Shown here: in pieces, positions 13,507-46,298 of the stretch | Position numbering within the stretch: the stretch's first letter is position 1 | Layout: the number at the start of each line of letters is the position of its first letter | Virus record (IMG/VR): IMGVR_UViG_2654588181_000001 | Source: a virus | Taxonomy: Duplodnaviria; Heunggongvirae; Uroviricota; Caudoviricetes | Length of the DNA stretch: 48,351 nt | Strand: one strand, 5' to 3' | Translations under genes and position numbers: made by a program | The notes under the pieces: model-generated | What the model was told of the DNA's origin: nothing | Databases searched by the model: none | Seen by the model: the letters and a program-made list of their open reading frames with translations, nothing else

Positions 13507-13526
13507 AAAAATACGACCTCTTTATA

Positions 13527-13910: not shown

Positions 13911-13919
13911 AAACTCACC

Positions 13920-15008
13920 TTAATTTTTATCGCGGTTTTTGAATACTGACCCAATAACATTTTTTACTACTTCAGCTTGTTTATCGCCGTTGTTTTCTGG
14001 TTGATTAACATCAACTGAATCATTCACCTCATTTGCGTCTTCTTGCCGTTGATTAAGAAAGTTTTTGTTACGCGCTCGCTCTGCATTCATAATTTCCAAA
14101 GCAAGTTCAGCCGCAGAAATTCCCGTTTTGAATTTTGCATTCTTAACCAGGTCGTCATGACCTGGAATTACGCTATTCTCGATTGTTTCAATGCGCTCGC
14201 GTTCTGATTTAACGCCCTCGTCTTTACCAGCATTAAAAACCTGATTGTATAATTCTGGATGTTTATTTTTTAATTCATCAAGAGTCACAACATCGTCCTC
14301 ATTTTGTTCATTTAATTCAGTAGATAATTCATTTTTATTTTGTGGCAACTTTGCGAGCGAATCAGGTAATTTTGAAAACCTTGATGCTTCAAAAGTTATT
14401 CCATTGAGCGAAAGCATCCCTTCCTTTATAGAAGCGGATAAGCGCATTGGTTTTTCAACTTCGTCAGCAAATCCAAGCTCTACAGCCTCTTCTGCATTTA
14501 GCCATGTTTCCTGATCCATTAGTTCAATTAATTTATCCTCAGAAAGCCCTGTTTTCTCCTTATATGCAGATAAAATACTATCTCGTATCTTATCCATCAT
14601 CTCAGCAATATCACGTAGTTCATCCGCATCACCAGCAGCAAATGTCCACGGATTATGGATCATCATCATAGCATTAGATGGGATAACAACTTTATCACCT
14701 GCCATTGCAATAATGGTTGCAGCCGATGCAGCAATACCATCAATATAAACAGTAATATTAGCCTTATGACGTTTTAATGAAGAAAGAATAGCTTGAGCAG
14801 TAAAAACAGAACCACCATAACTATTAATTTTTACGTTGATAGCATTTGATGATATATCCTTTAATTTATTAACTATGTCAGAAGAAGAAACCTCATCAAA
14901 TTCGCCAATATATCCGTAGATTAAAAGTTCAGCCGGAGAGTCATCTTCACCCGTGCTATTTTTTATTTCCCACCAATTAGGCATCATCTGTCTCCATATT
15001 TTGTTCAT
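13920..15008 (-). CDS. head maturation protease / scaffold (ClpP/S49-like, lambda gpC-like)
   Basis: 362-aa ORF; N-terminal ClpP-like core, acidic coiled C-terminal half. Confidence 0.75.
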   Translation of the reverse strand: MNKIWRQMMPNWWEIKNSTGEDDSPAELLIYGYIGEFDEVSSSDIVNKLKDISSNAINVKINSYGGSVFTAQAILSSLKRHKANITVYIDGIAASAATIIAMAGDKVVIPSNAMMMIHNPWTFAAGDADELRDIAEMMDKIRDSILSAYKEKTGLSEDKLIELMDQETWLNAEEAVELGFADEVEKPMRLSASIKEGMLSLNGITFEASRFSKLPDSLAKLPQNKNELSTELNEQNEDDVVTLDELKNKHPELYNQVFNAGKDEGVKSERERIETIENSVIPGHDDLVKNAKFKTGISAAELALEIMNAERARNKNFLNQRQEDANEVNDSVDVNQPENNGDKQAEVVKNVIGSVFKNRDKN

Positions 15009-16551
15009 TTACCTCAGAAACAGGAGGCGTAATCAGCCCCAACTCACGGCGAGCATTCTCTTCTCTGCCACAAATTTGTGCGGTTTCTTCCCAGTTAAGA
15101 CCTGACATTTCAGCCGCTTCCTTTTCACGGGTAGAGAATGTTTCCTCAACACGCAGTTTTGCAGCTTTGACTTCTTTAAGGGGATCTAATTGGCCTTGTG
15201 ATGGGCCATACCATTGAGCGCCACTCCATGCAGCGCGATATTCAGGCCCATAAAAAAAACCAGGGGCAATAACACGACCTTTAGCAACGGCTTCGGCCAA
15301 CCATTCCTCATAGATCGGTTGGCAAAATGACTGAACCATCCAGTCACGTCGCATACGGAACATTTTCCAGGCTTCAAGTAATGCGGCCCTGCTAGCGCTA
15401 TAACTTGCTGTAAAATGCTTTACCAAGAGTTCGTAAGGGAGTTCTAAAGCAGCCCCAATTTGACGGCATATGGCGACAACAAAACCATCAAATGCCGTAT
15501 TTGGTCGCCCGGGATTTGCTGTATCTATCGACTCACCTTCACCCAAACTTACTATGGAGCCATTCCCCATTTCTTGGGTGTTATCATCATGGTTATCGAT
15601 CTGCTCGTACTGAGGGATACCCGATTCACCGACTGGTCCATCAGGAGCGTCTGTTTTAATAAAGACAGTAAACATCCCTGACACAACCGCAGCAACCAAT
15701 TCAGCATCGGTGTATCGTCCTAACTGCTTCAATGCTTCAATAACAGGAGCAAGTACAGGAACGCCACGGCGTTGCCCAGGCCTTTCAAAATCCTGCATGA
15801 CATGCAGAATATTTCTTCTTCCTGTTTTACTCCCATATGCGGGAATACGTTCCCACTTGCGGGTTACAAAACCAGAAGTCCCGGCTGGGTGATGTTTTGC
15901 AACCCAGTACGCCACAGGCTCGCTAAATTCACCAACCTCTACGCCACCGTAAAGATTTGGTATAAAACGATCCTCTGGATTGCAAACACGATCACCTTCA
16001 ATTAAATAGACGCACAAATCATATATAACACCCTTACGCTTAATAACTGGTAGCGCAGCAAATATATCGCCAGATGTTAACGCAGATATTTGGACCAATG
16101 ATTGCAATTGTCCAAAAGTACACATTCTTGATGCATCACAATTTGGAGAATCAGCCCATAATCTAAACTCACGCTCAACATGCTTTTCCCATGCTCGCGC
16201 TTCTTCCTGCGTCATCCCCAAGAAATCGGCATCAATGTTCGCATTTAGTTTTAAACCGGAACCAACAACGTTTGTCCTGATAGTTTTTATTGCGCCAACC
16301 GATAGCGGGTTTCCCATGAAGAGATCACGAGAACGCTCACGCAATTTATCTATATTTTTAACAATATCATCATCAGGAGAACCAGCTTTACTAAACCAAC
16401 CCCTTAATGATTTTTTATGAGTGCTTGCACCATGACGTGAATATCCAAGGTTATTAATACCTTCAAGTGCTTCTAACCGTTTTCTTGCCAAAGCTCGATT
16501 TAATGCCCTCTGAGGTGAAAACGGCGCAATAACTCGATCAAGAATATTCAT
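14977..16551 (-). CDS. portal protein, lambda gpB-like
   Basis: 524-aa ORF between gpW-like and protease genes. Confidence 0.8.
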   Translation of the reverse strand: MNILDRVIAPFSPQRALNRALARKRLEALEGINNLGYSRHGASTHKKSLRGWFSKAGSPDDDIVKNIDKLRERSRDLFMGNPLSVGAIKTIRTNVVGSGLKLNANIDADFLGMTQEEARAWEKHVEREFRLWADSPNCDASRMCTFGQLQSLVQISALTSGDIFAALPVIKRKGVIYDLCVYLIEGDRVCNPEDRFIPNLYGGVEVGEFSEPVAYWVAKHHPAGTSGFVTRKWERIPAYGSKTGRRNILHVMQDFERPGQRRGVPVLAPVIEALKQLGRYTDAELVAAVVSGMFTVFIKTDAPDGPVGESGIPQYEQIDNHDDNTQEMGNGSIVSLGEGESIDTANPGRPNTAFDGFVVAICRQIGAALELPYELLVKHFTASYSASRAALLEAWKMFRMRRDWMVQSFCQPIYEEWLAEAVAKGRVIAPGFFYGPEYRAAWSGAQWYGPSQGQLDPLKEVKAAKLRVEETFSTREKEAAEMSGLNWEETAQICGREENARRELGLITPPVSEVNEQNMETDDA

Positions 16552-16787
16552 AAATCTCTTATCACCACTCGTTTAATTCGTGGGCCTCGGCGTATACCTG
16601 CTGATAATCTTTCTACTTCATTACGCCAGTAATCCATCTCTTTTCTGACTTCTGATAAATCCGCACGAGTTAACTGCCGCGTACCAAATTTATATGACTG
16701 ACCGCCAATAGCAATAGCGCGATATGCTTCCCGCCAGACAGATAACATCTCTCTGGCTTCAGTCAGAGAAAATGCTTCATTGTTCAT
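16548..16787 (-). CDS. head-tail joining protein, gpW-like
   Basis: 79-aa ORF between terminase large subunit and portal. Confidence 0.65.
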   Translation of the reverse strand: MNNEAFSLTEAREMLSVWREAYRAIAIGGQSYKFGTRQLTRADLSEVRKEMDYWRNEVERLSAGIRRGPRIKRVVIRDL

Positions 16788-16798
16788 TTATATTTCCT

Positions 16799-18655
16799 CT
16801 ATATGGTTACGCCTTTACTTATAACTCTACGGCGTCTTCTACGTATACCTGACGAGTTCTGCACATACACATTACCTCGCATTTCCTGTTCGGCAAGCCA
16901 GTTAAAATTAGGGTTCAGAATTTCCATCGCGGCAGTTGCATAGTTACGGCAATCAAGAGGCTCGTTACGCTCGTAGACTTTCACCCACTTTTCTTTTGTC
17001 TGCCCATTTTTATATTCAAATATTTTCTTCTCTGATAATAATCCTTTAAAGTATTCGGTATCATATCCTCTGTCAGAATCTAATGGGAAATGCATATAAC
17101 CAGGACCAGGATCATGTAGTTTAATTCTTGCCATGATGGTCCCTTTACCATCATCAACCCCCAAATTAAACAACATAGCACCCACACGGTTATTATTACT
17201 TGGCTTTCCTATAAATGGTAAACCTACCCCACCACGCCCCCTGATAGAGTATATTCGCCTTGATTCTCTCGGCTTAGTAAAGCGATATACCTCTGTCGTA
17301 AAATGCCCACCAGAGTCAATACAAACGGAAGAAATCTGTAATTTTCGACCGTCACGGAATGACCAGCTACGGAGTAAGTATTCATCAAGTTGTTTCCAGA
17401 CAACATCTTGTGCGGGATCACCTGGGAATATTTTATATTCTATCCCCCATGACTCCTTACCTTTTCCCCAACCGACCAATTCACAAACTAAATACGTGTC
17501 CTGTACGTCAACACCAGCACTTAACAATAAAACATCATCTGGTAAAAACTCTTCAAACCTTATTCTGCGTTGCAACAAGTATTCAGGATCGATATCGTCT
17601 TTAGCATCCTCTTTCCATGGCTCACCCAGCTTAAGGTTAATAAACTCCATTAATCCATTTTTATCGCGGTTTCTGGTTGCTTCCGTAAATTCTTCAACCA
17701 GCTCTGACAATGCAACCCACGGGGAGTAAAGACTGTTAATATGAAAACCAACAATACCTTTAACTCCAGTATGTTCAGCTATCCATACCCCCTTCGCCAA
17801 CCAATCAACGTCTGGTTTACCAGATCCGCGCATAATCCCGCCGCACTCACAGCACTCATATCTGGCCGTTTCCGGTAACGCCTCACCTGAATCGCTCTTA
17901 TCCCATCTGACTTGCGACCATTTCATCACCTGCATGGTGCCACAACATGGGCAAGGAACATGGTAGTAACGCTGATCGGAGAGCTTAAACCACTTGTGGA
18001 TTTTGCTCGTTTCCTCCAAAACAGGAGTAGAAACAAAAACTTTCTTACGATTATGAAAGTTGGTAGTACGCTGAATACCTAGTTTTAGTGGGTCGCCCTC
18101 CTGCGTCACACCGTAACGATCAATCTCATCAGCTAACAGTATTCGAATTGGCCTGGATGCAAGACCTGCTGGGGAATTAGCACCAACAAGTGCTATATAT
18201 CCACCAGCGTAATGCTTCATACGTATAGTCGTGCTGGACTTTTTGGCTGCACCGCGCCCCTCTTTCCCTTCATGCAGCTTGTGTTTCAAACCAGGGGAAT
18301 ATTTGAACGTCGGATCAATACGCTCTTTTGAAAAAGCCTCAGCCGCCTCTACCGTTGGATAAATCATCAACTGAGGAGATGGCTCCTGATCTGCAAAGTA
18401 ACCCATAACATTTAGCTGTAATTCGGATTTACCAATTTGCGAGCTACATTGCATCACTACTGTTTCTGTATCAGCGTCACCAATAACATCCATTGGTTCA
18501 CGCAAATATGGCACTCGGCTTGTACGCCACGGCCCTGGCTCTGGAGACGTTCCCGGCGCTACATGACGATACTTATCAGCCCATTCGGAAACAGTTAGCC
18601 GTGATTTAGGGCGAAGCGCACGGAAAAAAGCGGTGCTCCATACTGTTTCGCCCAT
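16799..18655 (-). CDS. terminase large subunit, lambda gpA-like
   Basis: 618-aa ORF with ATPase and nuclease regions; followed by W and portal. Confidence 0.85.
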   Translation of the reverse strand: MGETVWSTAFFRALRPKSRLTVSEWADKYRHVAPGTSPEPGPWRTSRVPYLREPMDVIGDADTETVVMQCSSQIGKSELQLNVMGYFADQEPSPQLMIYPTVEAAEAFSKERIDPTFKYSPGLKHKLHEGKEGRGAAKKSSTTIRMKHYAGGYIALVGANSPAGLASRPIRILLADEIDRYGVTQEGDPLKLGIQRTTNFHNRKKVFVSTPVLEETSKIHKWFKLSDQRYYHVPCPCCGTMQVMKWSQVRWDKSDSGEALPETARYECCECGGIMRGSGKPDVDWLAKGVWIAEHTGVKGIVGFHINSLYSPWVALSELVEEFTEATRNRDKNGLMEFINLKLGEPWKEDAKDDIDPEYLLQRRIRFEEFLPDDVLLLSAGVDVQDTYLVCELVGWGKGKESWGIEYKIFPGDPAQDVVWKQLDEYLLRSWSFRDGRKLQISSVCIDSGGHFTTEVYRFTKPRESRRIYSIRGRGGVGLPFIGKPSNNNRVGAMLFNLGVDDGKGTIMARIKLHDPGPGYMHFPLDSDRGYDTEYFKGLLSEKKIFEYKNGQTKEKWVKVYERNEPLDCRNYATAAMEILNPNFNWLAEQEMRGNVYVQNSSGIRRRRRRVISKGVTI

Positions 18656-18660
18656 GAGGT

Positions 18661-19221
18661 TTATTCTTCCTGCTTAATAAATCGGGATTCCTGGAGCGCC
18701 TGAAGCGCAAAATTAATCTCGTCTTCAATAATGCGTTCGATCTCCCTGGCTGTTTTGCCTTCACAACGGGGAGCTGCTCTTGGAGCAATACTAAATAAGC
18801 GGCTACGCAATTCATTAGCTGCCAGAAATGCATCATCCCTGACCGCATCTTTAGCGATGAGAGAGCCTTCCTTTTCTTCAAATTCAAGGCGTTTCAGCTT
18901 TGCCTGATAAATTTTTTCTGCGGTCTTAGCCTTGTTGAATTGCACTGCAACACCGGAAGTACCACCAGCTAATCCGGCATCATCAGCGGGTAACTCTGGT
19001 TGTTCCGAAGATATCCCATGCCCTCTTTTTCCATTTTCAGCAGATACCTCACGACCAACCTGTCGGCTCGCTTCATAAGCCGCACTAGCTTTATCAAAAT
19101 CCAGCTTGCCGCTTTTCAGCACTGGAATGCGACCGGAACGACAGAGCTTCGTAACCATTGCCGGAGAAATACCTTTTCGGCGGGCAAACTCTGACTTACT
19201 GACGATGGCCATTACTTGCAA
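18661..19221 (-). CDS. terminase small subunit, Nu1-like (HTH)
   Basis: 186-aa ORF immediately upstream of terminase large subunit; N-terminal HTH. Confidence 0.55.
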   Translation of the reverse strand: MQVMAIVSKSEFARRKGISPAMVTKLCRSGRIPVLKSGKLDFDKASAAYEASRQVGREVSAENGKRGHGISSEQPELPADDAGLAGGTSGVAVQFNKAKTAEKIYQAKLKRLEFEEKEGSLIAKDAVRDDAFLAANELRSRLFSIAPRAAPRCEGKTAREIERIIEDEINFALQALQESRFIKQEE

Positions 19222-19802
19222 CCATTAGCAAGATACTGAACAAATCCCTCATGCGTTTCATGCGCGTCGTGGTACTGACGATAAACATCCAGCAACAATG
19301 CAATTTCCATATCCGTCGCGGGAATACGTTCTTTATCAATAGCCAGGTACTTAATTTGAACAACAGGGGAAGAATTATCGTCTTCTTCCTGCGGCTGTTC
19401 ATCGCTTAACATTTCGTCAAGCTCTGCATCATTAAACCCAAGCAGATCAATATCAAAATCATCATCCATTAACGCTTTGACTTCTTCGGCCAGAAGCTGC
19501 ATATCCCAGCCAGCATTTAAGGCCAGCTTGTTATCTGCAATCCTGTAAGCCTTCTTCTGTTTTTCAGAAAGGTTACTCAACCGAATCGCTGGAACTTTAT
19601 CCATTTCCAGAATTTCGGCTGCTGCAAGCCGCCCATGCCCCGCAATCAGTTCATTCTTTTCATCGATCAGCACAGGATTAGTGAAACCGAACTCACGGAT
19701 ACTGTTCACCAACTGTTCAACTTGCTCATCTGAATGAGTCCGTGAATTTTTGGCGTATCTGAGCAGCTTACCGACTGGTAAATATTCGATTTTTAGAGCC
19801 AT
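19212..19802 (-). CDS. ParB-like N-terminal domain protein (paralog 1)
   Basis: 196-aa ORF; ParB/Srx-type motif ...LIDEKNELIAGHGRLAAA...; clear paralog of 22469..23092. Confidence 0.7.
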   Translation of the reverse strand: MALKIEYLPVGKLLRYAKNSRTHSDEQVEQLVNSIREFGFTNPVLIDEKNELIAGHGRLAAAEILEMDKVPAIRLSNLSEKQKKAYRIADNKLALNAGWDMQLLAEEVKALMDDDFDIDLLGFNDAELDEMLSDEQPQEEDDNSSPVVQIKYLAIDKERIPATDMEIALLLDVYRQYHDAHETHEGFVQYLANGCK

Positions 19803-20359
19803 TTTTTAACCGCCATAACACAACAGGTTAAAGAAAACTGTTTAACTTATTGATACTAAAAGAGAAAAATGACGATCTTTTTACTCATAAAAAATCACAC
19901 AAACCAGCATAATCATCTGATTTTATTAAGTTTTTATAAGTAAAAAGGATCTTGAGATGGTGTTTTGGTTAAAAGATTGGATGTATTTGCATGATTTATA
20001 ACGATTTTTATCAGAACAACATCACATTGGTTAAAGATCTGCGCGTATCTTGATGATCTAAAAGAAAATTTTCTACTTTCTTTTTACCAGCACAAATACA
20101 GCAAAAAATCACGTTTTCCCGATATTTTTCAATGAGATGAGTAAATTTCTTTTACCGCAACTTTTAACCTAACTTTTTTCACGTTTAGCTAGCCGAACAT
20201 CGGGGTTCGAATGACCCGCATCCAACGCTTTTGGCCAGAAGGACCCAATTCTGCCGGACGATGAAACGATGCTCGTGCTCCCCCACAGACAGCCAGCGAG
20301 CGACGCTACAGAACACAGTGAATACACTCTGCATAACAACACCATCAACCACACGATGA

Positions 20360-21079
20360 TTAACGAGAGAAGGTCTTAGAAAGAATGTCATCAATAGCCT
20401 TTGTGACTTCATCAGCAAACGCATCCTCACCAGCACGCAGCGCCACGCCATGCCAATCAAGACGCTGCGAATAGTTAGGTTGCTGGATAAACGTAAGGAT
20501 CAACGTAGGACGCCGCCCAACGCGCTGCCAGACGCCTGGTTGAAGCGGGTTACTTGTACCAGGTCGAACAACAAAAAACTCCGTAGGCTTGCCCTGACGG
20601 CGATTTTGATGCGCATCTCGCTGAACTCTTAGGCCAGATAAGACCTGCTGTAATTGCCCCCGCGAAATATTCCCGTATTTGTCCAGCTTTGCGCCGGGAC
20701 CAGGAGCAAGCTGCCAGCCGTTAGGCAAATATCCACCAGCCCTTAGCGCCCCTTCTGAGCGTTTGTACTGTCGTTGGCCACCTTCGATTTGCGGAGTCAA
20801 CGTTACAGGGGCTGGCGTTCCTCCCCATTCACGAGCATACACAATGGCTGTAGGATCACTCTTCTTTGCGGCCAAAACGTAAGTAGAGTTCTGAATCCAC
20901 GGCGTGGGCCTGTCAAATACCCGATTAATTTCATTCTTAATCGCAGCCTGAGAAGCCTTTGCCGTTCTGGTTGCCGCAAGCGCCATTGCGAACGGCAATT
21001 CGCGTTCTTCAAGGCGCTGGAGTTGTCGTTGAATATCCTGAGAAGAAAAATCCATCTTTATCTCAATTCTGTCAGCCAC
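20360..21079 (-). CDS. hypothetical protein
   Basis: 239-aa ORF embedded between ParB-like genes. Confidence 0.5.
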   Translation of the reverse strand: MADRIEIKMDFSSQDIQRQLQRLEERELPFAMALAATRTAKASQAAIKNEINRVFDRPTPWIQNSTYVLAAKKSDPTAIVYAREWGGTPAPVTLTPQIEGGQRQYKRSEGALRAGGYLPNGWQLAPGPGAKLDKYGNISRGQLQQVLSGLRVQRDAHQNRRQGKPTEFFVVRPGTSNPLQPGVWQRVGRRPTLILTFIQQPNYSQRLDWHGVALRAGEDAFADEVTKAIDDILSKTFSR

Positions 21080-21095
21080 CAGCGCCTCCTACACA

Positions 21096-22475
21096 CTACT
21101 TAATCAACGGCCGGAAAGCCGCCAGCACATCATCAGATCGTCCGATTGTTGAACCACCAGGCAACGGCAACTCAAACTCAAAACGAACAGCTTTCTCCAG
21201 ACTCGCCCAACTAAGGGAATCATCGTTAATGACGTGCAAATACCAGCTCTTACAGTTGAATATTGACCGCTTAATCCTGAAACCATGTACACGACACAAC
21301 TGCTTCACTTCCTCATCAGAGTGAAACTTCTGGTAAAACCAGTGCCCCTTCCGGTACAACGCGGTAAAACCGTTATGATCAATAAAATAAAGCCGGCTTT
21401 TGGAACTCGCCGCTTGTGTCTGCTTCAGGACTGTTTCCAGCTCTCCACGGCTACGGCCAGAAAAGAATATTGACCCACCAGCTTTACACAGCCCTTTCAG
21501 AACCGTCAGAACGGACCATTCAGCCTCGACACTATCGACCGAGTTCAAAACGCTATCGCAAATCACGTAGTCGTAACGCCCTCGCGTTTTTAAGTCGTCC
21601 ACCAGCGTATCAATCATCCGGTTTGTTGCGGTCCTATCCAGAGTGTTTCCAGCGCCCTTACGGCGGAAAAGCTCAAGATCATGCAGGTTATATCCCTTTG
21701 CCCTGAGCATTCGCGCGTAGTCTCCCTGACCCGAACCAAAATCAATTCCTCTTGGCGTCTTGGCAATGATCGGGAGGATCAACGACTCATACAGGTTTGA
21801 TTTCAGGCTGCCACCATTACGCAACCGCATAAGCTGCGCATACGTCTGGATGTATGTTGTTTTCTCCAGATGAGAATACTCAAATACACCATAAGTTTTA
21901 TTCAGATAACTTTGGTATTTTTCCTTCTCAACATCAGGGATCACAAACACCGTTAGCGGTGTGCGCGTCATCTTCGCTGCTAATGCATACTGAGCACAGT
22001 GAATAACCTCGCCAGACTGCGTAGCAACACAACCACCCCACGGACCATACTTGATAACCAGTTCCGCTATGTTCTTTCGAACATATGCCATTTTCGCGCG
22101 CATATTGCCTGAAATCTGGCTTGCCGATACCTGAACAAAACCATGCTTATCTCCCAGACCTGACACCCTGCAACGCTCATCTCCGCTATCAAAATCCGTT
22201 CCGTTATGCAGTTGGTTAAACCGTACTTCGTCGTATACCGTCGTTTCACAGGGCAACACATACACCGCAGCACGCGTTATTCCCAACTTACGTAGCGCCT
22301 TCGTCCTTTGGTGTCCCGCCACCAGCAAATCGCCGCGCACTATCAATGGCTTCACAAGCCCCAGCTCCCTGACGCTTTCCGCCAGCCTCGCAAGATCATC
22401 CTCACCGATAAAACGCGGGTTATATTCCGCGCCGCGTAGGTGCGTTATGTCGTAATTGAGATGAAGCATCAGCAC
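21096..22475 (-). CDS. ParB-like N-terminal domain fused to SAM-dependent methyltransferase domain
   Basis: 459-aa ORF; N-terminal ParB-like segment (LVAGHQRTKALRKLG); class-I MTase motif I-like IDFGSGQGDYARML and DYVICDSVLN. Confidence 0.65.
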   Translation of the reverse strand: MLMLHLNYDITHLRGAEYNPRFIGEDDLARLAESVRELGLVKPLIVRGDLLVAGHQRTKALRKLGITRAAVYVLPCETTVYDEVRFNQLHNGTDFDSGDERCRVSGLGDKHGFVQVSASQISGNMRAKMAYVRKNIAELVIKYGPWGGCVATQSGEVIHCAQYALAAKMTRTPLTVFVIPDVEKEKYQSYLNKTYGVFEYSHLEKTTYIQTYAQLMRLRNGGSLKSNLYESLILPIIAKTPRGIDFGSGQGDYARMLRAKGYNLHDLELFRRKGAGNTLDRTATNRMIDTLVDDLKTRGRYDYVICDSVLNSVDSVEAEWSVLTVLKGLCKAGGSIFFSGRSRGELETVLKQTQAASSKSRLYFIDHNGFTALYRKGHWFYQKFHSDEEVKQLCRVHGFRIKRSIFNCKSWYLHVINDDSLSWASLEKAVRFEFELPLPGGSTIGRSDDVLAAFRPLIK

Positions 22476-23092
22476 ACCTCCCCAGCCAGCAATGCGGATA
22501 CAAATCCGATATAGCTGCCATTATCATCAACATAACGAGATACCGCGCAGTCAAAACGATCCGCTTCCTCATCCGTTGCCGGGATTTTATGACCTCCAAA
22601 TGACAGGTACTGAACTTTTACGCCTGATTTGGCCTCATCCTTCTCAAATGGGATATCCATACCCTCTGTGTCATCGTAGACCGCCGCACTCAATAAGTTA
22701 TCCAGTTCGCGCTGAGTAAAACCAATTGAGTCCAGAGCAAAATCATCGGCCGCAAGATCTGCAAGTTCCGCGCTTAACAACTCTTCATCCCAACCAGCAT
22801 TCAGCGGAATACGGTTGTCGGCCAGACGATATGCCTTCTTCTGATTCTCCGTTAGCCCTTCCAGAACAATGCAGGGAACGTCATCCATCCCCAACTGAGT
22901 GGCCGCAGCAATTCGACCATGACCAGCAATTACAACGTTGTTCTCGTCTATCAGGATCGGATTAGTCCATCCGTACTCCTGTATGCTGGCAACAATCTGA
23001 TCTACCTGCTCCACGGAGTGTGTGCGAGCGTTCTTTTCATAACCAATCAACACAGAAAGTGGTAAAGAAACCACATTAAGATGTTTTGTCAT
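22469..23092 (-). CDS. ParB-like N-terminal domain protein (paralog 2)
   Basis: 207-aa ORF; ...ILIDENNVVIAGHGRIAAA...; about half identical to 19212..19802 by eye. Confidence 0.7.
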   Translation of the reverse strand: MTKHLNVVSLPLSVLIGYEKNARTHSVEQVDQIVASIQEYGWTNPILIDENNVVIAGHGRIAAATQLGMDDVPCIVLEGLTENQKKAYRLADNRIPLNAGWDEELLSAELADLAADDFALDSIGFTQRELDNLLSAAVYDDTEGMDIPFEKDEAKSGVKVQYLSFGGHKIPATDEEADRFDCAVSRYVDDNGSYIGFVSALLAGEVC

Positions 23093-24966: not shown

Positions 24967-25083
24967 CGGGTTATCTCCGGTTTAACCAGGGCGGGTATCG
25001 CTCGGTTTCGGGTATAACCATAGGAAATTTTTTCCCACCTGTAAAGCACCTTTTATATAAATATATAATTATATAATTCTATG
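24967..25083 (-). promoter_or_regulatory. repeated promoter-leader cassette, copy 1
   Basis: Near-identical to 31746..31865 and 41210..41330; -35 TTTACA, 17-nt spacer containing GGAAAAAATTTCC, -10 TATGGT, ~60-nt conserved leader, GGAG then ATG. Confidence 0.6.
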
Positions 25084-25666
25084 CCACTTGCCAGAGAGCA
25101 TCATGCAACTGGATACCTCCATTGCACTGGTTGCCCCAGCCATGCCAGCCATCAGGTAAATCACCGCGAGCAAACAGCTCAATACGGGGAACATCACCTA
25201 ACAGCCTTACCAGCTTGTCACGAACCACATCAGGCTTCCGAGAATGCTCCAGACGAGGCGATGTAAACGACTGAATGATCCCCGCATCAAGGCGGGTCGG
25301 CAGTTTGCCTTTTACCGCAAACAAGCAATCTTCACTGTTTGCACGAGTCATATGCCCCATCCCCATCACCAGCTTATCTGGTTGTCGGCTACCACATTTG
25401 TTCCATGTGAAGCCCTTCATGGTCATCAGCCTGAATCCCCATGCTTTCACCACCAGCAACGCTTCTTCTGGCTGAGTCGGAACCCACCACATGGCCAACA
25501 AACACGATTCAGGATTAGCAAGCTGCCAGACAGGAATACGAGCAATATCCTCAGCTTTCATCGTTGGATACTTAAAACCAGCGCCACGATTCCCATCCTT
25601 ACACTTGTCTTTGTATTCCCAGGGGGGATCTGCATAAATCAGATTAAACAATGCAATTGCCTCCAT
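25079..25666 (-). CDS. DNA N6-adenine methyltransferase, MT-A70-like
   Basis: 195-aa ORF with catalytic DPPW motif (LIYADPPWEY). Confidence 0.75.
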   Translation of the reverse strand: MEAIALFNLIYADPPWEYKDKCKDGNRGAGFKYPTMKAEDIARIPVWQLANPESCLLAMWWVPTQPEEALLVVKAWGFRLMTMKGFTWNKCGSRQPDKLVMGMGHMTRANSEDCLFAVKGKLPTRLDAGIIQSFTSPRLEHSRKPDVVRDKLVRLLGDVPRIELFARGDLPDGWHGWGNQCNGGIQLHDALWQVA

Positions 25667-25973
25667 GTTAGTTGTGTCTCCGGCGCTTATCTCCGGCAGT
25701 CATAACGCTGGCCAGCTCTACAGCAAACACAACGAAAAGGGCACTAACCAGACTGATTAATGCCCTTGCCTGTTGTGTGCCGGATATCGCCCGACAACGC
25801 TGTTTTGGTAACACGGCTACAGTTCCGTGCCGCTCCAGCTTTTACCCCTTTGCGGATAACAGGCCCTGCCTGTAACTTAGCCCCACGTTCGCCCGAAATG
25901 CGCACCAGGCACGCATAAAGATGAGCACGAAGAAGTAACTCCACCGCGCTTATCTTTATGTGTGAGAGTGAAT

Positions 25974-26049
25974 TGGTGGCCCCTACCGGATTTGAACCGA
26001 TGACCGTGCGATTATGAGTCGCCTGCTCTAACCACTGAGCTAAGGGGCC
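25974..26049 (-). tRNA. tRNA with CAU anticodon (Ile2/lysidine type or Met), CCA encoded
   Basis: 76-nt cloverleaf: GGCCCCT acceptor stem, D-arm TAGCTCAGTGGTTAGAGCA, anticodon loop CTCATAA, T-loop GGTTCAAATCC, 3' CCA; first ~42 nt match my recollection of E. coli ileX. Confidence 0.8.
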
Positions 26050-26218
26050 ATATTTGATTTGTTTGTCTGGTGTGGCGCCGCGCACGAAAATCCCAGCCAA
26101 TAAATTCAGGATTTTTGGGCGCGGCGGCATATCAGACAAACATGGTTGATGCGTGCGCCCATGAGAAAAGCGCATAGAATGTTGTAACTATATATTTATA
26201 TAATTATAGAAATATATA

Positions 26219-26428
26219 TTACTTTCGGCAGTTGATTTCCCATGCCCTGTTATGAGCCAGAATATCTTTCTTTGTCTGGCGGTCCATAACATCGATGTCG
26301 TGATCAGTCAGGTAGATGGGCTTTACCCAATCACAGGCGGTATCAACCACCACCGGGACGCTTCCACGACTCCCGCAGCTCGCGATCAACATCGTCATCA
26401 GCCATATGGTTAACACTCTGCTGTACAT
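26219..26428 (-). CDS. o-spanin (Rz1-like lipoprotein), overlapping in alternate frame
   Basis: 69-aa ORF with lipobox-like LIASC; overlaps 3' end of Rz-like gene. Confidence 0.5.
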   Translation of the reverse strand: MYSRVLTIWLMTMLIASCGSRGSVPVVVDTACDWVKPIYLTDHDIDVMDRQTKKDILAHNRAWEINCRK

Positions 26429-26621
26429 TCCCCACCTCTTTTGTCACTTCTATACGCCGCTCCGCAGTGGCTTTTACGGCGGCTGCATTCTCATTAATGC
26501 GCTGCTTTTCAGCTTCATCTTCGGCCTTTTCTCGCCCCTTCATACGACCAAAACCAAACGCGCCGAATGCAACCAATATAATTGTGCCAATAAATGACAA
26601 AACGGCCTTCAAACCAGTCAT
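26343..26621 (-). CDS. i-spanin (Rz-like)
   Basis: 92-aa ORF, N-terminal TM helix then charged coiled region; directly downstream of endolysin. Confidence 0.55.
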   Translation of the reverse strand: MTGLKAVLSFIGTIILVAFGAFGFGRMKGREKAEDEAEKQRINENAAAVKATAERRIEVTKEVGNVQQSVNHMADDDVDRELRESWKRPGGG

Positions 26622-27160
26622 ACCACCACTCGCTCTTTCATCCAGCCGTAGACAAACGACTCATTAGCCTCGCGCTTCTCCGCCAACTCCAGATAGCGTT
26701 CGCCCTGCGTACAGTTCAGCGACGTCAGCATCACCCGTTCGCCGTCTTTTCCCCGATTCCCAAGATAAGCACGCAGCGCATTAATGGTACGTGGACCGAT
26801 TCGTCCATCTGCATCCAAATCGGGATACAGCTTCCCACGCAGATTGAACACATTCAGCCAGCGTTGAAGCATTTTGGACGCCACTGTTGGCCCCATATTC
26901 ACACCGGTATCACACAGCTCTGCGGCAATATCAGAGGATAATGCAGCCACCTGATCAAAGCGTGGTCCGTACCAGTAATCAGCCTCAAGGATTTCCAGTG
27001 CCTGTTCGCGGGTTAAATCGCGCATATCGCCACGGTATCCATGAGCACGGGCAGTGTTCTGAGTAATGCCCCACTTTGTTGGGCCTCCCTTGTCGTCAGG
27101 GTGATCCACATAGCCGCCCTCTTTTCCAAGAACGCTGTTAAAAATCTCATCTTTGGTCAT
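26618..27160 (-). CDS. endolysin (GH108-like muramidase with peptidoglycan-binding domain)
   Basis: 180-aa ORF; N-terminal EGGYVDHPDDKGGPTKWGIT motif. Confidence 0.75.
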   Translation of the reverse strand: MTKDEIFNSVLGKEGGYVDHPDDKGGPTKWGITQNTARAHGYRGDMRDLTREQALEILEADYWYGPRFDQVAALSSDIAAELCDTGVNMGPTVASKMLQRWLNVFNLRGKLYPDLDADGRIGPRTINALRAYLGNRGKDGERVMLTSLNCTQGERYLELAEKREANESFVYGWMKERVVV

Positions 27161-27479
27161 GATTAAACCCTAATGCGTCAACTATCCGCGCCAGATTGCC
27201 CCTGAAATACAGAACAACGATGCAGATAATCAGATTTCCAATAACCACCAGCCAGTGGGATTCTTGATAAAGACCGAACACATAACGGAAGGGAACATTG
27301 GCGTATACAATGACGTAGATATAAGCCAGAAAGGAAACAAATGGACGATGCCTGGAGTCTTTCCGTCGATAAAGCATCAGCGCCATTACTATTACTGTGC
27401 AAAGCACCGCATTAATCAGTGCTGACGGGTCACTGCTTACCATTTGAACCCCCTCCACGTAAGCGGGAAAGCATTCCAA
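27147..27479 (-). CDS. lysis-associated membrane protein (holin/antiholin candidate)
   Basis: 110-aa ORF with hydrophobic helices between holin candidate and endolysin. Confidence 0.45.
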   Translation of the reverse strand: MECFPAYVEGVQMVSSDPSALINAVLCTVIVMALMLYRRKDSRHRPFVSFLAYIYVIVYANVPFRYVFGLYQESHWLVVIGNLIICIVVLYFRGNLARIVDALGFNHDQR

Positions 27480-27825
27480 AGATGCTACCGAGATCCTGGC
27501 TGTTTACGAACGTGAGGATTTTAATGGTCAATGCAGCCACAATAACCGCACCAAGCGCATCCAGAGGACGATCGTTGTAGCTGGTCCATTTGGCAAGAAA
27601 TGAGCCAACTAACGGCGCTCCAATCACTCCAACAATGAACGATGTAAAGAAATAGCCAATCAGCTTGAGACGGCTAATATTCACCGCTGTAGCAACATAG
27701 AAAACAGCGCCAGCAAATGCCCCGAATACAACGCCGTAATCAATACCAGTTGCAATACCAAAAACGCTGGCACCCATCAGGCCACCAGCAGCAACGGCCG
27801 TACCGGAAATTGGTTCTGCTGACAT
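27430..27825 (-). CDS. putative holin
   Basis: Hydrophobic multi-TM ORF; start chosen at ATG 27825 preceded by GAGGA, because the upstream ATG at 27873 lies inside a terminator hairpin. Confidence 0.55.
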   Translation of the reverse strand: MSAEPISGTAVAAGGLMGASVFGIATGIDYGVVFGAFAGAVFYVATAVNISRLKLIGYFFTSFIVGVIGAPLVGSFLAKWTSYNDRPLDALGAVIVAALTIKILTFVNSQDLGSIFGMLSRLRGGGSNGKQ

Positions 27826-27838: not shown

Positions 27839-27868
27839 AAAAAAAAAGCCCCGCCGAAAAGGCAGGGC
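27839..27868 (-). terminator. rho-independent terminator upstream of lysis genes (tR'-like)
   Basis: Minus-strand GCCCTGCC-TTTTC-GGCGGGGC followed by T9. Confidence 0.55.
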
Positions 27869-28561
27869 TTCATAAAGCAACAAATTACGCGGTAATCGCT
27901 TAACGCAGTTTTACTACGTTAAATGAAACACTACACCCAGTTACCACCTAAAACAAGGTTTTCCCATAAAAAAACCTTCATATTGTGGTTAACCGATCAA
28001 TAAAAAAACAATACTTAACTTTTGACCAACCGAACATCCCGACCAGGACTTCCATAATATTCGCCGATATGCCACTGCTTAAGTTGAGTAATCTTCTCCA
28101 ACTTAACGCCCATAGAGTCCAGTTTCTGCCATGTTTTCGGTTGTATGTGCTTCATTACCCGCTCTGAATATCTGAATACTGCTCGTAAGCGCATGGCTTC
28201 TCACTACAGCTTATATAAGTGGTTTTTCCAGCGGTTTTGCGCCGCGCTGCGCTTATCTTTGACTCCCTCTCTGGCAATTCCAGAATATAAGTACAACACC
28301 ACACGGCGGTTGCTAACTCTCAACCACTGGCTGGGATAGCAACGTCTGTATACACGGGAAATAAGCATCTTTGCTTTACGGTTTTTCATCATTTTGCTCT
28401 CCTGCGTTTCTTTGCTGCACGCCGTGCAGCTGCAATACCGGTATGGCGGCGCTTTGGTGCCGGGATGATGTTGTCAGCCATCAGGACATGCGGCTTTGCA
28501 ATTAGCGCAGAAGCCCAAAAACGAGTCGGGTATGGTAACAAGCCGATACATGCCACACGCA

Positions 28562-34284: not shown

Positions 34285-34402
34285 ACCACGATATGTGGTA
34301 TTAAAACCACATATCGTGAGTTTTTCAATGGGCGAAACAAAAAATAACCTTCTATTTGTGGTCCACCTCTCGTCTTACCATGTGAAAACCACTAAATGTG
34401 GT
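34285..34402. promoter_or_regulatory. divergent promoter/operator region with ACCAC-N5-GTGGT operators
   Basis: ACCACGATATGTGGT (34285..34299), ACCACATATCGTG (34306..34318), GTGGTCCAC (34357..34365), ACCACTAAATGTGGT (34388..34402). Confidence 0.65.
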
Positions 34403-34439
34403 AATGTATAAATAACCCACCATTCACGATTGATGAGAC

Positions 34440-35096
34440 ATGAAAAGCAACGACGAGAACATCAAGAAAGAAATAGGTCTGCGCATTCAGACTCTACGGA
34501 AACAATCCGGCATGACTGCCGGAGATCTCCAGCAAGTCACTGGAATAGGCTTAAGCACCTTGCAGAACTATGAGGCCGGATTAAGACAACCATCTATACC
34601 TGCCATCAAGAAAATCGCGCACGCCCTAAAAGCATCAGCGCCTTACATCGCGTGCTTAACAGATAACCCGTTCCCACCCCAGAATACTAACGCTCCTGTT
34701 ATTCCTGGGCTTGTAGCTATAAAAAATGACATAGCATCGCACGCCGGAGAAAAGCCTGTGCTGGCGATAGAACAGGAGATTTTACGAAGCAAGAACATCA
34801 ACCCATCGTCTCTGTCAGTTCTCCAGAGCAACGATGAGTTAATGTCACCAACAATATCCCCTGGCTCCCAAGTCCTGATTAATACAGACGATACAGAGAT
34901 TCATGAGGGGATCTATGCCCTTGAAGACAGAAATGGCCTAGTTGTTTTGAGGCACTGTAGAGTCATACCGGGTGACAATGCTGTTATGCTGTCAACCGAA
35001 AGGGATGCTGAAATGAACACTAAGCATCTGAATAACGAGGAATTTAAGCGTTATAAAGTTCTTGGCCGCGTAGTTAGTGTTGTCAACTGGTTATGA
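34440..35096 (+). CDS. CI-like repressor (HTH plus S24/LexA-like autocleavage domain)
   Basis: 218-aa ORF; N-terminal HTH; C-terminal ELMSPTISPGSQVLIN resembles S24 Ser-nucleophile region. Confidence 0.8.
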   Translation: MKSNDENIKKEIGLRIQTLRKQSGMTAGDLQQVTGIGLSTLQNYEAGLRQPSIPAIKKIAHALKASAPYIACLTDNPFPPQNTNAPVIPGLVAIKNDIASHAGEKPVLAIEQEILRSKNINPSSLSVLQSNDELMSPTISPGSQVLINTDDTEIHEGIYALEDRNGLVVLRHCRVIPGDNAVMLSTERDAEMNTKHLNNEEFKRYKVLGRVVSVVNWL

Positions 35097-35188
35097 TACA
35101 CAGCACGGCGGAAGCCGTGCATTTCTACGCTCAAAAAAACCACATTTTGTGGTTTTGACAACATGTAAAAGTATAAAAGAGGCTACGC

Positions 35189-35563
35189 ATGGAATTACAT
35201 ACAGCCAATAAAAACGAAACTCTGATCACTGCTGGAATCGAAATCCAAGCGTTGAACATAGCGATTGAGTGTATGTTATGCCAAATCATTGATAATGAGA
35301 AAGATATCGACTGGATAGAATCTATCCTTCATCTGGCATCAGAACAAAAAGTCTGCCTCAAAACGGCCTTACAATACGATGTGCCAGCGGTATCGAAGCT
35401 GTGCCAGCCATTGATGGCATATAACAGAGCTATTATTTCTGTATGCCTCATGATTCTCGATGAAAACACCCCTCTTAGCGACCGCTCAGAAGCTGCTCTA
35501 ACCCTCTCACGTAAACAGCGACAGCTAGCAAATCAACTGATATCAACGATAGCTGACCTCTGA
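35189..35563 (+). CDS. hypothetical protein downstream of repressor (superinfection-exclusion position)
   Basis: 124-aa ORF preceded by operator-like ACCACATTTTGTGGT at 35140..35154 overlapping a TTGACA. Confidence 0.45.
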   Translation: MELHTANKNETLITAGIEIQALNIAIECMLCQIIDNEKDIDWIESILHLASEQKVCLKTALQYDVPAVSKLCQPLMAYNRAIISVCLMILDENTPLSDRSEAALTLSRKQRQLANQLISTIADL

Positions 35564-35713
35564 CTGCAAGCGGGCTAACGCCCGCTTATATGATTATAGA
35601 TTTATATAATTATATAAAACGCTTTTCATCCGCCAAAAAGTTGGTTATGCTTACCTCGTTCTATAAATATAGATTTATAGAATTATATAATCAAACACAT
35701 GGAGTCTCGACAA

Positions 35714-36367
35714 ATGACTATCTCTGTAGGTATTTTCAACGGAAAAGGTGGCGTAACCAAATCAACAATTGCCCGTGCTTTAGCAGTTGCTTATGCAAAG
35801 GCTGGCTGGAATGTATGCCTGATCGATATGGATGTGCTTAACGGAACGGTAACGCGTTGGGTACAACGCAGAATGGCCAACAATATCGAACCAGCAATCG
35901 CGGCGCAGCCGTGCGGCACACCATCACAAGTCCAGAAAATCATCGAATCAGAAGTATACGACCTGGTTATCGTTGATGGCGGTGCCTACGCATCTGAATC
36001 AGTACCGAAGCTATCTGAATTTCTGGATATGGTTATTTTGCCAACCCGATTCTCTACCGATGACCTGGAAACCACCGTTAACACTGCTCACGGCATCGTT
36101 AAAAAGGGTGTACCAATCAAGAAAATTTGCATGGTGTTTTCCGGCGCGGCTGAAAACGAAGCTGACTATATTGAAGCCCAAGAGTACCTGGCTAATACGC
36201 CATACTTTGTTGTCGATAAGTACATTCCCCACAAGCCAGCTCTGAGCAAAGCTCAGGATAAGGGCTTAAGCCTCATTGAATGCTCATACGTTGCGCCACG
36301 CAAAAAGGCAGACGACGTTATTCAGGGGATTATCAACCAGCTTGAGGCTCTGACTACTGCCGCGTAA
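35714..36367 (+). CDS. parA: ParA-family partition ATPase
   Basis: Deviant Walker A GIFNGKGGVTKST at N-terminus; ATG at 35714 with GGAG 10 nt upstream. Confidence 0.85.
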   Translation: MTISVGIFNGKGGVTKSTIARALAVAYAKAGWNVCLIDMDVLNGTVTRWVQRRMANNIEPAIAAQPCGTPSQVQKIIESEVYDLVIVDGGAYASESVPKLSEFLDMVILPTRFSTDDLETTVNTAHGIVKKGVPIKKICMVFSGAAENEADYIEAQEYLANTPYFVVDKYIPHKPALSKAQDKGLSLIECSYVAPRKKADDVIQGIINQLEALTTAA

Positions 36368-36410
36368 TATATAATTATAGTTTTATAGATTTATATAAGA
36401 GGGGATACAC

Positions 36411-36659
36411 ATGGCCGCACCATCAAAACCACCAAAGAAGAACAGCAAAGGCGTACCGCCATCGATCGAACAACCGCAAGTTTTCGACCCGACTGAAACG
36501 CCAACCAGAACCAAATCAGGTGGGGCTCAAATGGCGTTTAATGTCGACCCTGAATTTAAACGCGAGTACAAAACGTTCGCCAGCTCAATGGATATGTCAT
36601 TGAAAGAAGTGCTGACAAAGTCTTTTGAGTTACTCAAGGCTCAATACAACCAGAAGTAA
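36411..36659 (+). CDS. small centromere-binding partner (ParG-like RHH)
   Basis: 82-aa ORF directly after parA; disordered basic N-terminus then MAFNVDPEFKREYKTFA RHH-like segment. Confidence 0.55.
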   Translation: MAAPSKPPKKNSKGVPPSIEQPQVFDPTETPTRTKSGGAQMAFNVDPEFKREYKTFASSMDMSLKEVLTKSFELLKAQYNQK

Positions 36660-36688
36660 GAGAAGGTGACGGCCTCCAGCGCCAACTG

Positions 36689-36871
36689 TTGGCCGTCGCG
36701 ACACAACAAGGGGAATTTGTTATGTCCGAACAACAATATACACGGTTACTGAAAACTCGTCTAACCGACCTCAAACGGCTGCAAGCTGGTCGCTTATTTG
36801 CCCTGCTATCCACCAGGCCAGAATGGGTACGTGAAGCAGTTCTGAAAGGCTTAATGCGCTCCAGCGTTTAA
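36689..36871 (+). CDS. hypothetical small protein
   Basis: 60-aa ORF. Confidence 0.3.
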   Translation: MAVATQQGEFVMSEQQYTRLLKTRLTDLKRLQAGRLFALLSTRPEWVREAVLKGLMRSSV

Positions 36872-36880
36872 ATTCAACCA

Positions 36881-36903
36881 TAAAAAAGGCCCCCGAAGGG
36901 GCC
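36881..36903 (-). terminator. rho-independent terminator
   Basis: GGCCCC-CGAA-GGGGCC hairpin followed by T-run on minus strand. Confidence 0.5.
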
Positions 36904-36909
36904 TAATCG

Positions 36910-37029
36910 CTACTTGCTGCTAATGTTTATCGTCACATTCAGAGCGTTATCAGTAATCTTCCAACCCTCCCCATGTGGCGTAAACAAAGCTCCAGTAACA
37001 ACGATAAAAATACACATACAGTATTTTTT
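36910..37029 (-). CDS. small hydrophobic peptide (40 aa) with own SD and terminator
   Basis: MKKYCMCIFIVVTGALFTPHGEGW...; AAGGG 8 nt upstream of ATG; terminator immediately downstream. Confidence 0.35.
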   Translation of the reverse strand, partial: KKYCMCIFIVVTGALFTPHGEGWKITDNALNVTINISSK

Positions 37030-37785
37030 CATTGTGTGGCCCTTACAGGCCGTTTCACGGCATCCCCACCGACGAAAACAACGCGAGAGCAAGCACGGCT
37101 GCTTGTGCTTGCATGTACGGCAACAGGAAATCCTCCCCTAAAGTCGGTGCCCGGGTGCGAATCGGCGGGAAGGTCCACAGGTATTTTACGATTATTTTAA
37201 GATTAGTAATAGGAAAGAAATTAAACGAAAAAAACAGTTTATTTTCACAAAATCAGTAACCTACCCACAATCTGTGAGTTTGCTGACACAACAAGAACCA
37301 CAATTTTTTGATGTATAATAGTGGACTATTATTACCTTTTGAGTAAAATCAATTTGCTGCTTGTGCTTGCGTGGTTGTTTATACAACAACGTAATGCTGA
37401 AAGGACCGCGAATCCGATCAGCACGAAAGAACCGTCCTCAATAGGGCGGTTTTTTTGTTTCTGCCTACCAATAAACCCACGCTATGTGGTTGTCTCTGTT
37501 AAAATCCCGCCGTATTGACATGAATGCGCCATTGGTGGACACTTTCCGAGCCGTAGCAAAATCTACGGTCGGGATTAGCCTCCTGAATAACACGATGGCG
37601 CATACCGCGTTAGCGGTTTTTTTATGCGTAGAGCACTGTTACGCCCAAATTATGGTGGGTCGTACAGGGGCGGAGAAATCCGCGCCGGTTCGTCATTGTG
37701 TCCGGTAAGGCTAACCCTGTACGGCTCACCACCATTTGATTAGCCTCGAATGGCGGTGATAGTTCCATATACTGGAGATATCACA

Positions 37786-37977
37786 ATGACAAACCTACCC
37801 CATGACTATTACGTCAACCTCGTAAAGATCCTTCTCAAGAAAGCCTCATACGCCGATAAATTCCGCCTGGCTGAAATCATCGAGCGCGAAGCTATGCGCA
37901 TCGCCAGCAACGATAACGCTGTTTCTGACGCAAAAATCTCCCTCGTAACCAAAGTAGTTATGGGAGGTGCAAAATGA
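37786..37977 (+). CDS. small ORF overlapping antirepressor start (icd-like position)
   Basis: Stop overlaps ant ATG (ATGA at 37974..37977); start uncertain. Confidence 0.35.
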   Translation: MTNLPHDYYVNLVKILLKKASYADKFRLAEIIEREAMRIASNDNAVSDAKISLVTKVVMGGAK

Positions 37978-39116
37978 AAACGCTTCCGACCGTTAACACC
38001 CTACAGCCTATCCTGCATAACCAGATCCCCGTTATCACTAGTGAACTTCTGGCGCAGTTATACGGAACAAAAATCAAAAACATTTCTGATAACTTTCTGA
38101 ACAACACGACGCGATTCGTAGCCGGAAAGCATTACTTTAAAATTGAAAAAAACGAATTACGCGAGTTCAAGAACAGACCCGAAACAATCGGGTTAGTTGG
38201 TAAAAATGCCCGCTCCCTAATTCTCTGGACCGAACGCGGGGCTGCACGTCACGCTAAAATGCTCGAAACCGATCAGGCGTGGGATGTATTCGAACGGCTG
38301 GAAGACTGCTATTTCAGCCAGAACGCGCAAACGGCCGCGACCGTAACCGTCTCGCCAAACAATGCTCGTGAGGTTGTCGATACGCTCAACGCCAAACCGA
38401 TGTTTTACATTAAGGTGTGCAATAACGAGCCACTCACAACCTCAGCCGATGTTGCCCAGGCATTCAGCACCACAAACAATTCCATCGTTATGGCCATCGA
38501 TGCGCTACGCATTCCTCGCACGGCTGCGGCGCGTCACTTCTTTAAAGAGCAACGACCGTTGGAAGGAAGCGACCGCGAAATAACAATCTATCGCATGACA
38601 AAAGACGGATTTACCTTGCTCATGGAGAGCATCGACGGTCCAGGCGTGAAAGATATCAAGCTGGCCTACATTGAAGCCTTTAACGCTATCAGCAGCGTGT
38701 TAAAAACACAGTACGAGCGTGATCTGGCTAAACGACTGTACCAGGAAAAAACGATTATCCGCGCGGCAACAGAGCATAATCGGCTATTAACGGAACCGAA
38801 CTACAGGAAGGAACTAATCAAGGAGTTTGACAAGGCAACAGGGAAAACCAAAGCGGCGCTAAATCTGCCAGCAATGACTCAGGAAAATGTGATATCAGCC
38901 TTACTTCTTGATCTGCTCAGAAACGCCAGAGCACTTATCAGCTTTGACGAAAACCTGAATCCTCAGCTCAAGCTACTACCACCGACAGGCAAAGTAGTCG
39001 ACCAGGCTGATCACAACAGCATACTCAGCGTACTGGATGCAAACCTGCCAGCCAGGACACTACAGGATCTGATAAAAACATGTGCTGATAAGCTGGCACA
39101 GAAAAGCAGACCATAA
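37974..39116 (+). CDS. antirepressor (Ant-like)
   Basis: 380-aa ORF; N-terminal KilA-N/ORF6N-like segment; operator-like CCCACGCTATGTGGT upstream at 37477..37491. Confidence 0.7.
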   Translation: MKTLPTVNTLQPILHNQIPVITSELLAQLYGTKIKNISDNFLNNTTRFVAGKHYFKIEKNELREFKNRPETIGLVGKNARSLILWTERGAARHAKMLETDQAWDVFERLEDCYFSQNAQTAATVTVSPNNAREVVDTLNAKPMFYIKVCNNEPLTTSADVAQAFSTTNNSIVMAIDALRIPRTAAARHFFKEQRPLEGSDREITIYRMTKDGFTLLMESIDGPGVKDIKLAYIEAFNAISSVLKTQYERDLAKRLYQEKTIIRAATEHNRLLTEPNYRKELIKEFDKATGKTKAALNLPAMTQENVISALLLDLLRNARALISFDENLNPQLKLLPPTGKVVDQADHNSILSVLDANLPARTLQDLIKTCADKLAQKSRP

Positions 39117-39126
39117 CTACAAGGGG

Positions 39127-46297: not shown

Positions 46298-46298
46298 T

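Follow-up and report, generated by a model that had tools for sequence, protein, structure and literature searches.

The window analysed here, a stretch of DNA of 48,351 nucleotides, carries a single tRNA gene, located at 25974-26049 on the minus strand, which by its identity elements is a tRNA-Ile2 gene of the P1 trnI type, with anticodon CAU and an encoded CCA end, and not a tRNA-Met gene. We think it likely that this gene is functional, is of the same kind as ileX and ileY of Escherichia coli and trnI of bacteriophage P1, and raises the AUA-decoding capacity of the phage-plasmid that bears it. The feature itself is already annotated and of a known kind: RefSeq labels the exact sequence tRNA-Ile, and phage tRNA-Ile2 genes have long been known (trnI of P1, ileZ of Stx phages). 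The assignment draws together ARAGORN, Rfam RF00005, sequence alignment, identity elements and the identical tRNA-Ile of RefSeq.

ARAGORN, run over the whole window, called exactly this one tRNA, with anticodon CAT at position 34, and Rfam RF00005 matched 25977-26049 of the minus strand with 67 bits (gathering score 29, E=1.6e-12). The initial annotation had described a canonical 76-nt tRNA with encoded CCA and a CAU anticodon, and both programs bear this out, the coordinates being exact. The gene is 76 nt long, with the CCA 3′ end encoded, and folds into a standard cloverleaf whose single non-Watson-Crick pair is G27.A43. Pair 27:43 is likewise the sole non-standard pair of related tRNAs, being G.A in P1 as in the window and A.C in ileZ; the host's G.U is also non-Watson-Crick. 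Across 14 homologues (the window tRNA, P1 trnI, ileX, ileY, 933W ileZ, Klebsiella ileX and several lineage variants) cloverleaf pairing was 95.9%, compared with 29-48% for slid partners, and three of the five T-stem pairs have changed on both sides.

Nucleotides 1-42 are identical to those of E. coli K-12 ileX, and 68 of the 76 positions match overall, which upholds the earlier remark that the 5′ half is like ileX and the T-arm different: the eight differences are confined to positions 43-44 and the T-arm. U43-U44 of ileX is replaced by A43-C44 (giving G27.A43 for G27.U43), in two T-stem pairs both partners have changed, pair 50:64 becomes a U.G wobble, and A59 stands for G59. A73, the CCA end and the determinants for TilS and IleRS are the same as in ileX and ileY. 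Matches to other tRNAs number 72/76 for P1 trnI and 66/76 for ileY, against 57/77 for metT/metU (elongator Met) and 47/77 for metZ (initiator Met). All chromosomal E. coli matches are annotated as tRNA-Ile among the matches listed (about 30 of thousands).

For E. coli TilS, C4-G69 and C5-G68 are the dominant positive determinants, whereas tRNA-Met carries the negative determinants U4-A69 and A5-U68 (PMC2500205; PMC11947777; PMC12514573). The initial annotation had pointed to the acceptor stem as a place to look for TilS identity elements, and both C4-G69 and C5-G68 are found there. TmcA, which acetylates elongator tRNA-Met, requires C27-G43, C30-G40 and G44 (PMC2500205); these determinants are missing from the window tRNA, which has G27.A43, G30-C40 and C44. 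Elements used by IleRS are A73, C4-G69, the 12:23 pair, C29-G41, the anticodon loop and the D-loop (PMC9976931). The window tRNA agrees with ileX in these (A73, C4-G69, U12-A23, C29-G41 and a D-loop of the ileX type), and its anticodon loop, CUCAUAA with A37/A38, is the same in ileX. Initiator tRNA-fMet is marked by C1.A72, by three consecutive G-C pairs at 29-31:39-41 and by A11-U24. All of these states are present in metZ and absent from the window tRNA, which has G1-C72, the pairs C29-G41, G30-C40 and A31-U39, and C11-G24. E. coli TilS modifies a heterologous tRNA-Ile2 in which the acceptor determinants are kept (PMC12514573), and by analogy lysidine modification is unlikely to be prevented by what has changed in the T-arm and variable region.

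The label tRNA-Met is nevertheless attached to the identical tRNA in OR545053-OR545055, and to tRNAs in many P1-like phage records, whereas RefSeq PGAP gives tRNA-Ile. That the gene encodes an elongator or initiator tRNA-Met, as ARAGORN and the GenBank records of Yersinia phages have it, is a reading with the CAT anticodon and these labels in its favour, and unmodified CAU tRNA-Ile2 is indeed a substrate of MetRS (PMC9976931), but it is already contradicted by the acceptor-stem, TmcA and initiator positions given above and by the low match counts to Met tRNAs, and we give it practically no weight. A low-scoring Met assignment by tRNAscan-SE was one outcome that the initial annotation named as speaking against it; the Met label returned by ARAGORN derives from the anticodon alone, is ruled out by identity elements and match counts, and does not amount to that outcome. 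The tRNA-Met label is probably a systematic mislabel of the same origin. The 'tRNA-Met' of Klebsiella phage ST13-OXA48phi12.1 is a separate matter, being host rpoD-mug-ileX flank inside a prophage record, with no phage tRNA.

The closest relative of the window tRNA is P1 trnI (NC_005856, 70933-71008, anticodon CAT), which is annotated as tRNA-Ile2 and is 89% identical to ileX. The two have in common the derived A43-C44, the T-stem pairs A49-U65 and C51-G63, the full ileX-type acceptor stem, D-arm and anticodon loop and the encoded CCA, and differ by four substitutions, at positions 6, 26, 50 and 59. Both are carried by plasmid-prophages of E. coli, but their flanks are unrelated: trnI sits between tciC and ban in the ban operon, which C1 controls, whereas the window tRNA follows the spanin genes and precedes an MT-A70 gene, between two hairpins. 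P1 also carries two more tRNAs, Asn and Thr. In phage 933W, ileZ resembles the window tRNA in being a tRNA-Ile(CAU) in the late region of a temperate E. coli phage, near lysis genes, and in having a non-Watson-Crick 27:43 pair. It differs in belonging to another sequence lineage, in its place immediately behind Q/pR′, ahead of both stx and the lysis genes, and in having its own annotated putative promoter and two Arg tRNAs (argN, argO) alongside. A literature search on the function of ileZ/argN/argO and P1 trnI returned nothing useful.

tRNAs of the A43-C44 type were represented by 13 distinct sequences from 121 loci, including at least 120 IMG/VR stretches, in two families of phage-plasmids. 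Only positions 6, 13, 26, 50, 59, 71 and 72 vary among the 13 sequences, and each change in a stem leaves a standard or wobble pair; this cloverleaf-preserving variation indicates purifying selection. Of 185,579 species-representative genomes, a single one contained the 3′ half, on an Escherichia contig of 83 kb, and the A43-C44 type was found in at least 120 viral contigs. Among the matches listed, its flanks are of two kinds, P1-like upstream of ban and those of the 48-kb family to which the window belongs, and the lineage appears, from these sequences, confined to these two groups of phage-plasmids. The two contexts have only the 76 nt in common, and the tRNA can therefore be regarded as a phage-plasmid-borne branch of enterobacterial tRNA-Ile2, probably exchanged between co-resident plasmid prophages.

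The window is a phage-plasmid of E. coli, of myovirus type and about 48 kb, since RefSeq plasmids with this tRNA encode RepA, ParA and a RelE/ParE toxin-antitoxin pair together with a complete myovirus structural module. At least 20 E. coli plasmids in RefSeq, 31-50 kb in size, contain the identical 76 nt, which PGAP labels tRNA-Ile in all 20 listed. The same 76 nt are also present in Yersinia phages vB_YpM_39, 41 and 44 (GenBank OR545053-OR545055), whose sequences match 84% of the window's first 24 kb with an identity of about 99%; Y. pestis phage vB_YpM_HQ103 is an unrelated 32-kb P2-like phage. Plasmid pATCC25922_4 of strain ATCC 25922 has a tRNA-Ile at the same position with one base different (G59). 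Among 5,426 complete E. coli genomes, 72 contain the terminase gene of the 48-kb family and, in a separate count, 69 contain a 481-bp block with the tRNA. The E. coli members of the family are about 99% identical throughout. The initial view that the tRNA does not serve as an attachment site agrees with its full length, with the RepA and ParA of the plasmid and with an annotation that includes no integrase: the gene is not a partial copy of a host 3′ end, its 3′ part departs from that of the host genes, and the only recombinase annotated on the circular plasmid is a small one adjoining the tail-fibre genes. Elsewhere in the window, Rfam matches at gathering level at 36882-37736 (ryfA, 36882-37178, minus strand; isrK, 37550-37623, plus strand; C4 antisense RNA, 37648-37736, plus strand) look like a P1/P7-type c4-ant immunity region adjoining an ORF6N/Rha-like antirepressor region.

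The tRNA is encoded, as first reported, on the late-gene strand, the minus strand, where the lysis cassette and every head and tail gene also lie, and its reported place between the lysis cassette and the late genes also holds. Read along this strand, the order is a T9 terminator, the lysis genes, an AT palindrome, a long hairpin, the tRNA, a second hairpin, a terminator-like hairpin, and then the MT-A70, ParB-like and terminase genes. The lysis cassette (26219-27825, minus strand), recognized from PHROGs matches and from the RefSeq annotation of near-identical plasmids, lies directly upstream of the tRNA and comprises a holin (27430-27825), a second holin (27147-27479), a GH108 endolysin (26618-27160), an Rz-like i-spanin (26343-26621) and, overlapping the latter, an Rz1-like o-spanin (26219-26428). 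About 20 nt before the holin start, the terminator scan and the sequence reveal a strong intrinsic-terminator-like hairpin with an 11-bp stem and T9 (27845-27871, minus strand), which suggests that the lysis genes, the tRNA and the late genes are reached by read-through or antitermination. No Q-like protein for antitermination was identified.

Directly after the o-spanin stop codon, the inverted-repeat search found an AT-only, near-perfect 30-bp palindrome at 26189-26218 (TATATATTTATATAA / TTATAGAAATATATA). Manual reading of its minus strand gives a perfect TATAAT with a −35 match of only 3/6, and no sigma-70 promoter upstream of the tRNA passed the scan; the palindrome may be an operator or a weak or activator-dependent promoter for the tRNA. 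It is followed by a long imperfect inverted repeat of 83 bp (26060-26142), with 34-nt arms that are 85% complementary and a 15-nt loop, stopping 10 nt short of the tRNA 5′ end. For the tRNA strand, the predicted fold of the repeat comes to −40.3 kcal/mol (z=−6.5), and for the plus strand to −53.5 kcal/mol (z=−9.8); the stronger plus-strand fold is due to only three G.U pairs and is not significant. Five members of the 48-kb family have the repeat without any change. It was not seen outside this family and matched no Rfam family, and is possibly a leader, a site for RNase III or other processing, or a DNA site. With permissive settings, Rfam yielded nothing usable in 25600-26350, its matches being miRNA-type ones below threshold on this hairpin and a weak rydB.

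On the other side, the inverted-repeat search found a stable 3′ trailer hairpin with no U-run (25910-25964, minus strand), which starts 10 nt after the CCA end; the fold of 25900-25973 has −28.5 kcal/mol (z=−4.8). An internal A.C mismatch of this hairpin becomes A-U in the ATCC 25922 plasmid copy, and apart from this one repaired mismatch there was no covariation signal in the flanking hairpins within the family (about 98% identical). The scan also placed a terminator-like hairpin with a short T-run (25737-25767, minus strand; −18.5 kcal/mol, z=−5.3) between the tRNA and the first downstream gene, which encodes an MT-A70 family DNA methyltransferase (25079-25666, minus strand; PHROG 359, E=1e-102, and RefSeq annotation). 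Three genes with ParB/Srx-like N-terminal domains lie at 19212-23092, between the tRNA and methylase on one side and the terminase on the other; the ParA partition gene is a different one, located in another part of the element.

Codons were counted with the same greedy ORF caller in the window and in a 50-kb segment of MG1655, used as the host sample. The initial annotation had named a lack of AUA enrichment in phage genes as an outcome that would refute it, but these genes are enriched: AUA makes up 17.4 per 1000 codons of the window (215/12,382) and 2.9 per 1000 of the host sample (44/15,209), a ratio of 6.0 that is the highest among the 61 sense codons (Fisher p=7e-37). Relative to the number expected from codon-position composition, AUA stands at 0.82 in the window and 0.22 in the host, so that the host's avoidance of this codon is almost absent from the window. 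The packaging, head and tail genes (856-19802, minus strand, as seen from codon counts and the pATCC25922_4 annotation), the presumed AUA-rich clients of the tRNA, contain about 21.0-21.5 AUA per 1000 codons, or 32% of their Ile codons and some 7 times the host value. The ORFs counted in this set are those of 100 aa or more on the minus strand; ORF 856-1179, the first of the interval, lies on the plus strand. The frequency is 4.6 per 1000 in the lysis genes, 10.3 in the block at 28-34 kb and 19.2 in the part with maintenance, immunity and tail-fibre genes (34400-48351), and the enrichment is thus real and not confined to late genes. Tandem AUA-AUA occurs in six ORFs of at least 60 aa in the window, four of them within the packaging, head and tail set.

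AUA is avoided in E. coli genes, and its only decoders in K-12 come from two minor tRNA genes. With AUA about 6 times as frequent in the element as in the host, and about 7 times in the structural genes, an extra gene would therefore raise decoding capacity, in support of the initial suggestion that the tRNA may boost the decoding of AUA. As a general rule, tRNAs of phages match codons that the phage overuses and the host rarely uses (PMC4032129), and AUA, the codon cognate to the window tRNA, is of this sort. The next over-represented codons are AGG (5.5), AGA (4.1) and ACA (3.5, all window/host). AGG and AGA are nearly as over-represented as AUA, but the element is without an Arg tRNA; in Stx phage 933W, ileZ is accompanied by two of them.

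In the mechanism that we propose, transcription along the late strand would reach the tRNA gene from the lysis operon by read-through, or else start at a weak promoter within the palindrome at 26189-26218. The tRNA would be mainly part of the late transcript and then be processed out, though it may also have a weak promoter of its own. Host RNase P and 3′-end processing enzymes would cut it out from between the flanking hairpins, host TilS would recognize C4-G69 and C5-G68 and turn C34 into lysidine, and IleRS would charge the modified tRNA with isoleucine, enabling it to read AUA. The dosage of the tRNA gene would be amplified with replication of the phage genome, and the added capacity may bring a fitness benefit. 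Against this stand the top anticodon-stem pair, G27.A43 where the host has G27.U43, which may affect TilS or IleRS, the sigma-70 scan in which no promoter upstream of the tRNA passed, and the absence of an Arg tRNA despite the frequent AGA and AGG.

A further point against this proposal comes from close relatives. In IMG/VR, the tRNA is present at both loci whose terminase is identical and whose upstream sequence is long enough. In L011, whose terminase is 99% identical and whose structural genes are near-identical and AUA-rich (15.4 per 1000), no tRNA was found within 10 kb upstream of the terminase gene; the methylase and ParB1 genes are missing from L011 too, and of ParB2 there is only a remnant. 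Given this lack of a tRNA close to the L011 terminase gene, the tRNA may be dispensable. Relatives are mosaic in the stretch that separates lysis from packaging genes, and those with terminases 87-91% identical mostly have no tRNA. The ones that do bear tRNA genes have them about 6-7 kb upstream of the terminase, and their isotypes differ from that of the window: Thr-UGU and Gly-UCC in L019 and L020 (4046-4201), Arg-UCU in L031 (3757-3833), and tRNAs including a degenerate-looking CAU in L022 (3863-4091) and L024 (3472-3547), a set of Phe, Thr and degenerate CAU tRNAs being found among these relatives. The relatives' tRNAs read the A-ending codons ACA, GGA and AGA, which are also over-represented in the window, and the zone upstream of the terminase looks like a variable tRNA slot. 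Within the clade whose terminases are 88% identical, codon use is the same with or without tRNAs, and the presence of tRNAs does not track it.

These observations favour, to a degree, a real tRNA-Ile2 that is nearly a neutral passenger, recombined from co-resident P1-like plasmids and kept by clonal linkage without a meaningful effect on translation; and the conservation within the E. coli family, at about 99% identity, could reflect recent ancestry. We nevertheless consider such a passenger unlikely, as all 13 variants from the two families keep the cloverleaf, AUA is the most over-represented codon, and the tRNA block is found in nearly as many genomes (69) as the terminase (72). Somewhat further from what we would expect, the A43-C44 lineage might be a specialized phage-plasmid tRNA with properties that host ileX lacks, borne on a cassette of hairpin, tRNA and hairpin, and we regard this as improbable. 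If true, such properties could, for example, consist in expression in the plasmid state that reprograms AUA decoding of the lysogen, or in escape from a host factor acting on the tRNA-Ile2 body.

Service mainly to the lysogen, in which expression from the plasmid-prophage would aid AUA decoding of AT-rich host accessory genes and plasmid maintenance genes, is improbable as well. The AUA-rich non-structural part at 34400-48351, the perfect TATAAT in the palindrome upstream of the tRNA, and the stable maintenance of the plasmid with RepA, ParA and a toxin-antitoxin pair would all suit it, but a convincing −35 element is absent and the tRNA lies inside the late transcription unit, behind a strong terminator. 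Very improbable is a spare tRNA for counter-defence, replacing cleaved or depleted host tRNA-Ile2 and evading a nuclease through its altered positions 43-44 and T-arm: the phage-borne lineage, eight positions off ileX and nearly absent from the species-representative genomes, is what one would look for, but the anticodon stem-loop (27-42) is the host's, such that an anticodon nuclease would cut both, the codon demand already fits, and we know of no E. coli defence that targets tRNA-Ile2.

Raised AUA-decoding capacity of the phage-plasmid is thus the function that we favour for this tRNA-Ile2 gene. Its significance beyond correct annotation is small. The annotation does matter for users of the databases: ARAGORN gives tRNA-Met, as do the GenBank entries for isolates of this phage obtained on Yersinia pestis, and the label is misleading. 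ATCC 25922, finally, naturally bears the one-base variant of the gene on pATCC25922_4, which makes codon compensation by this family of phage-plasmids testable in a standard strain.
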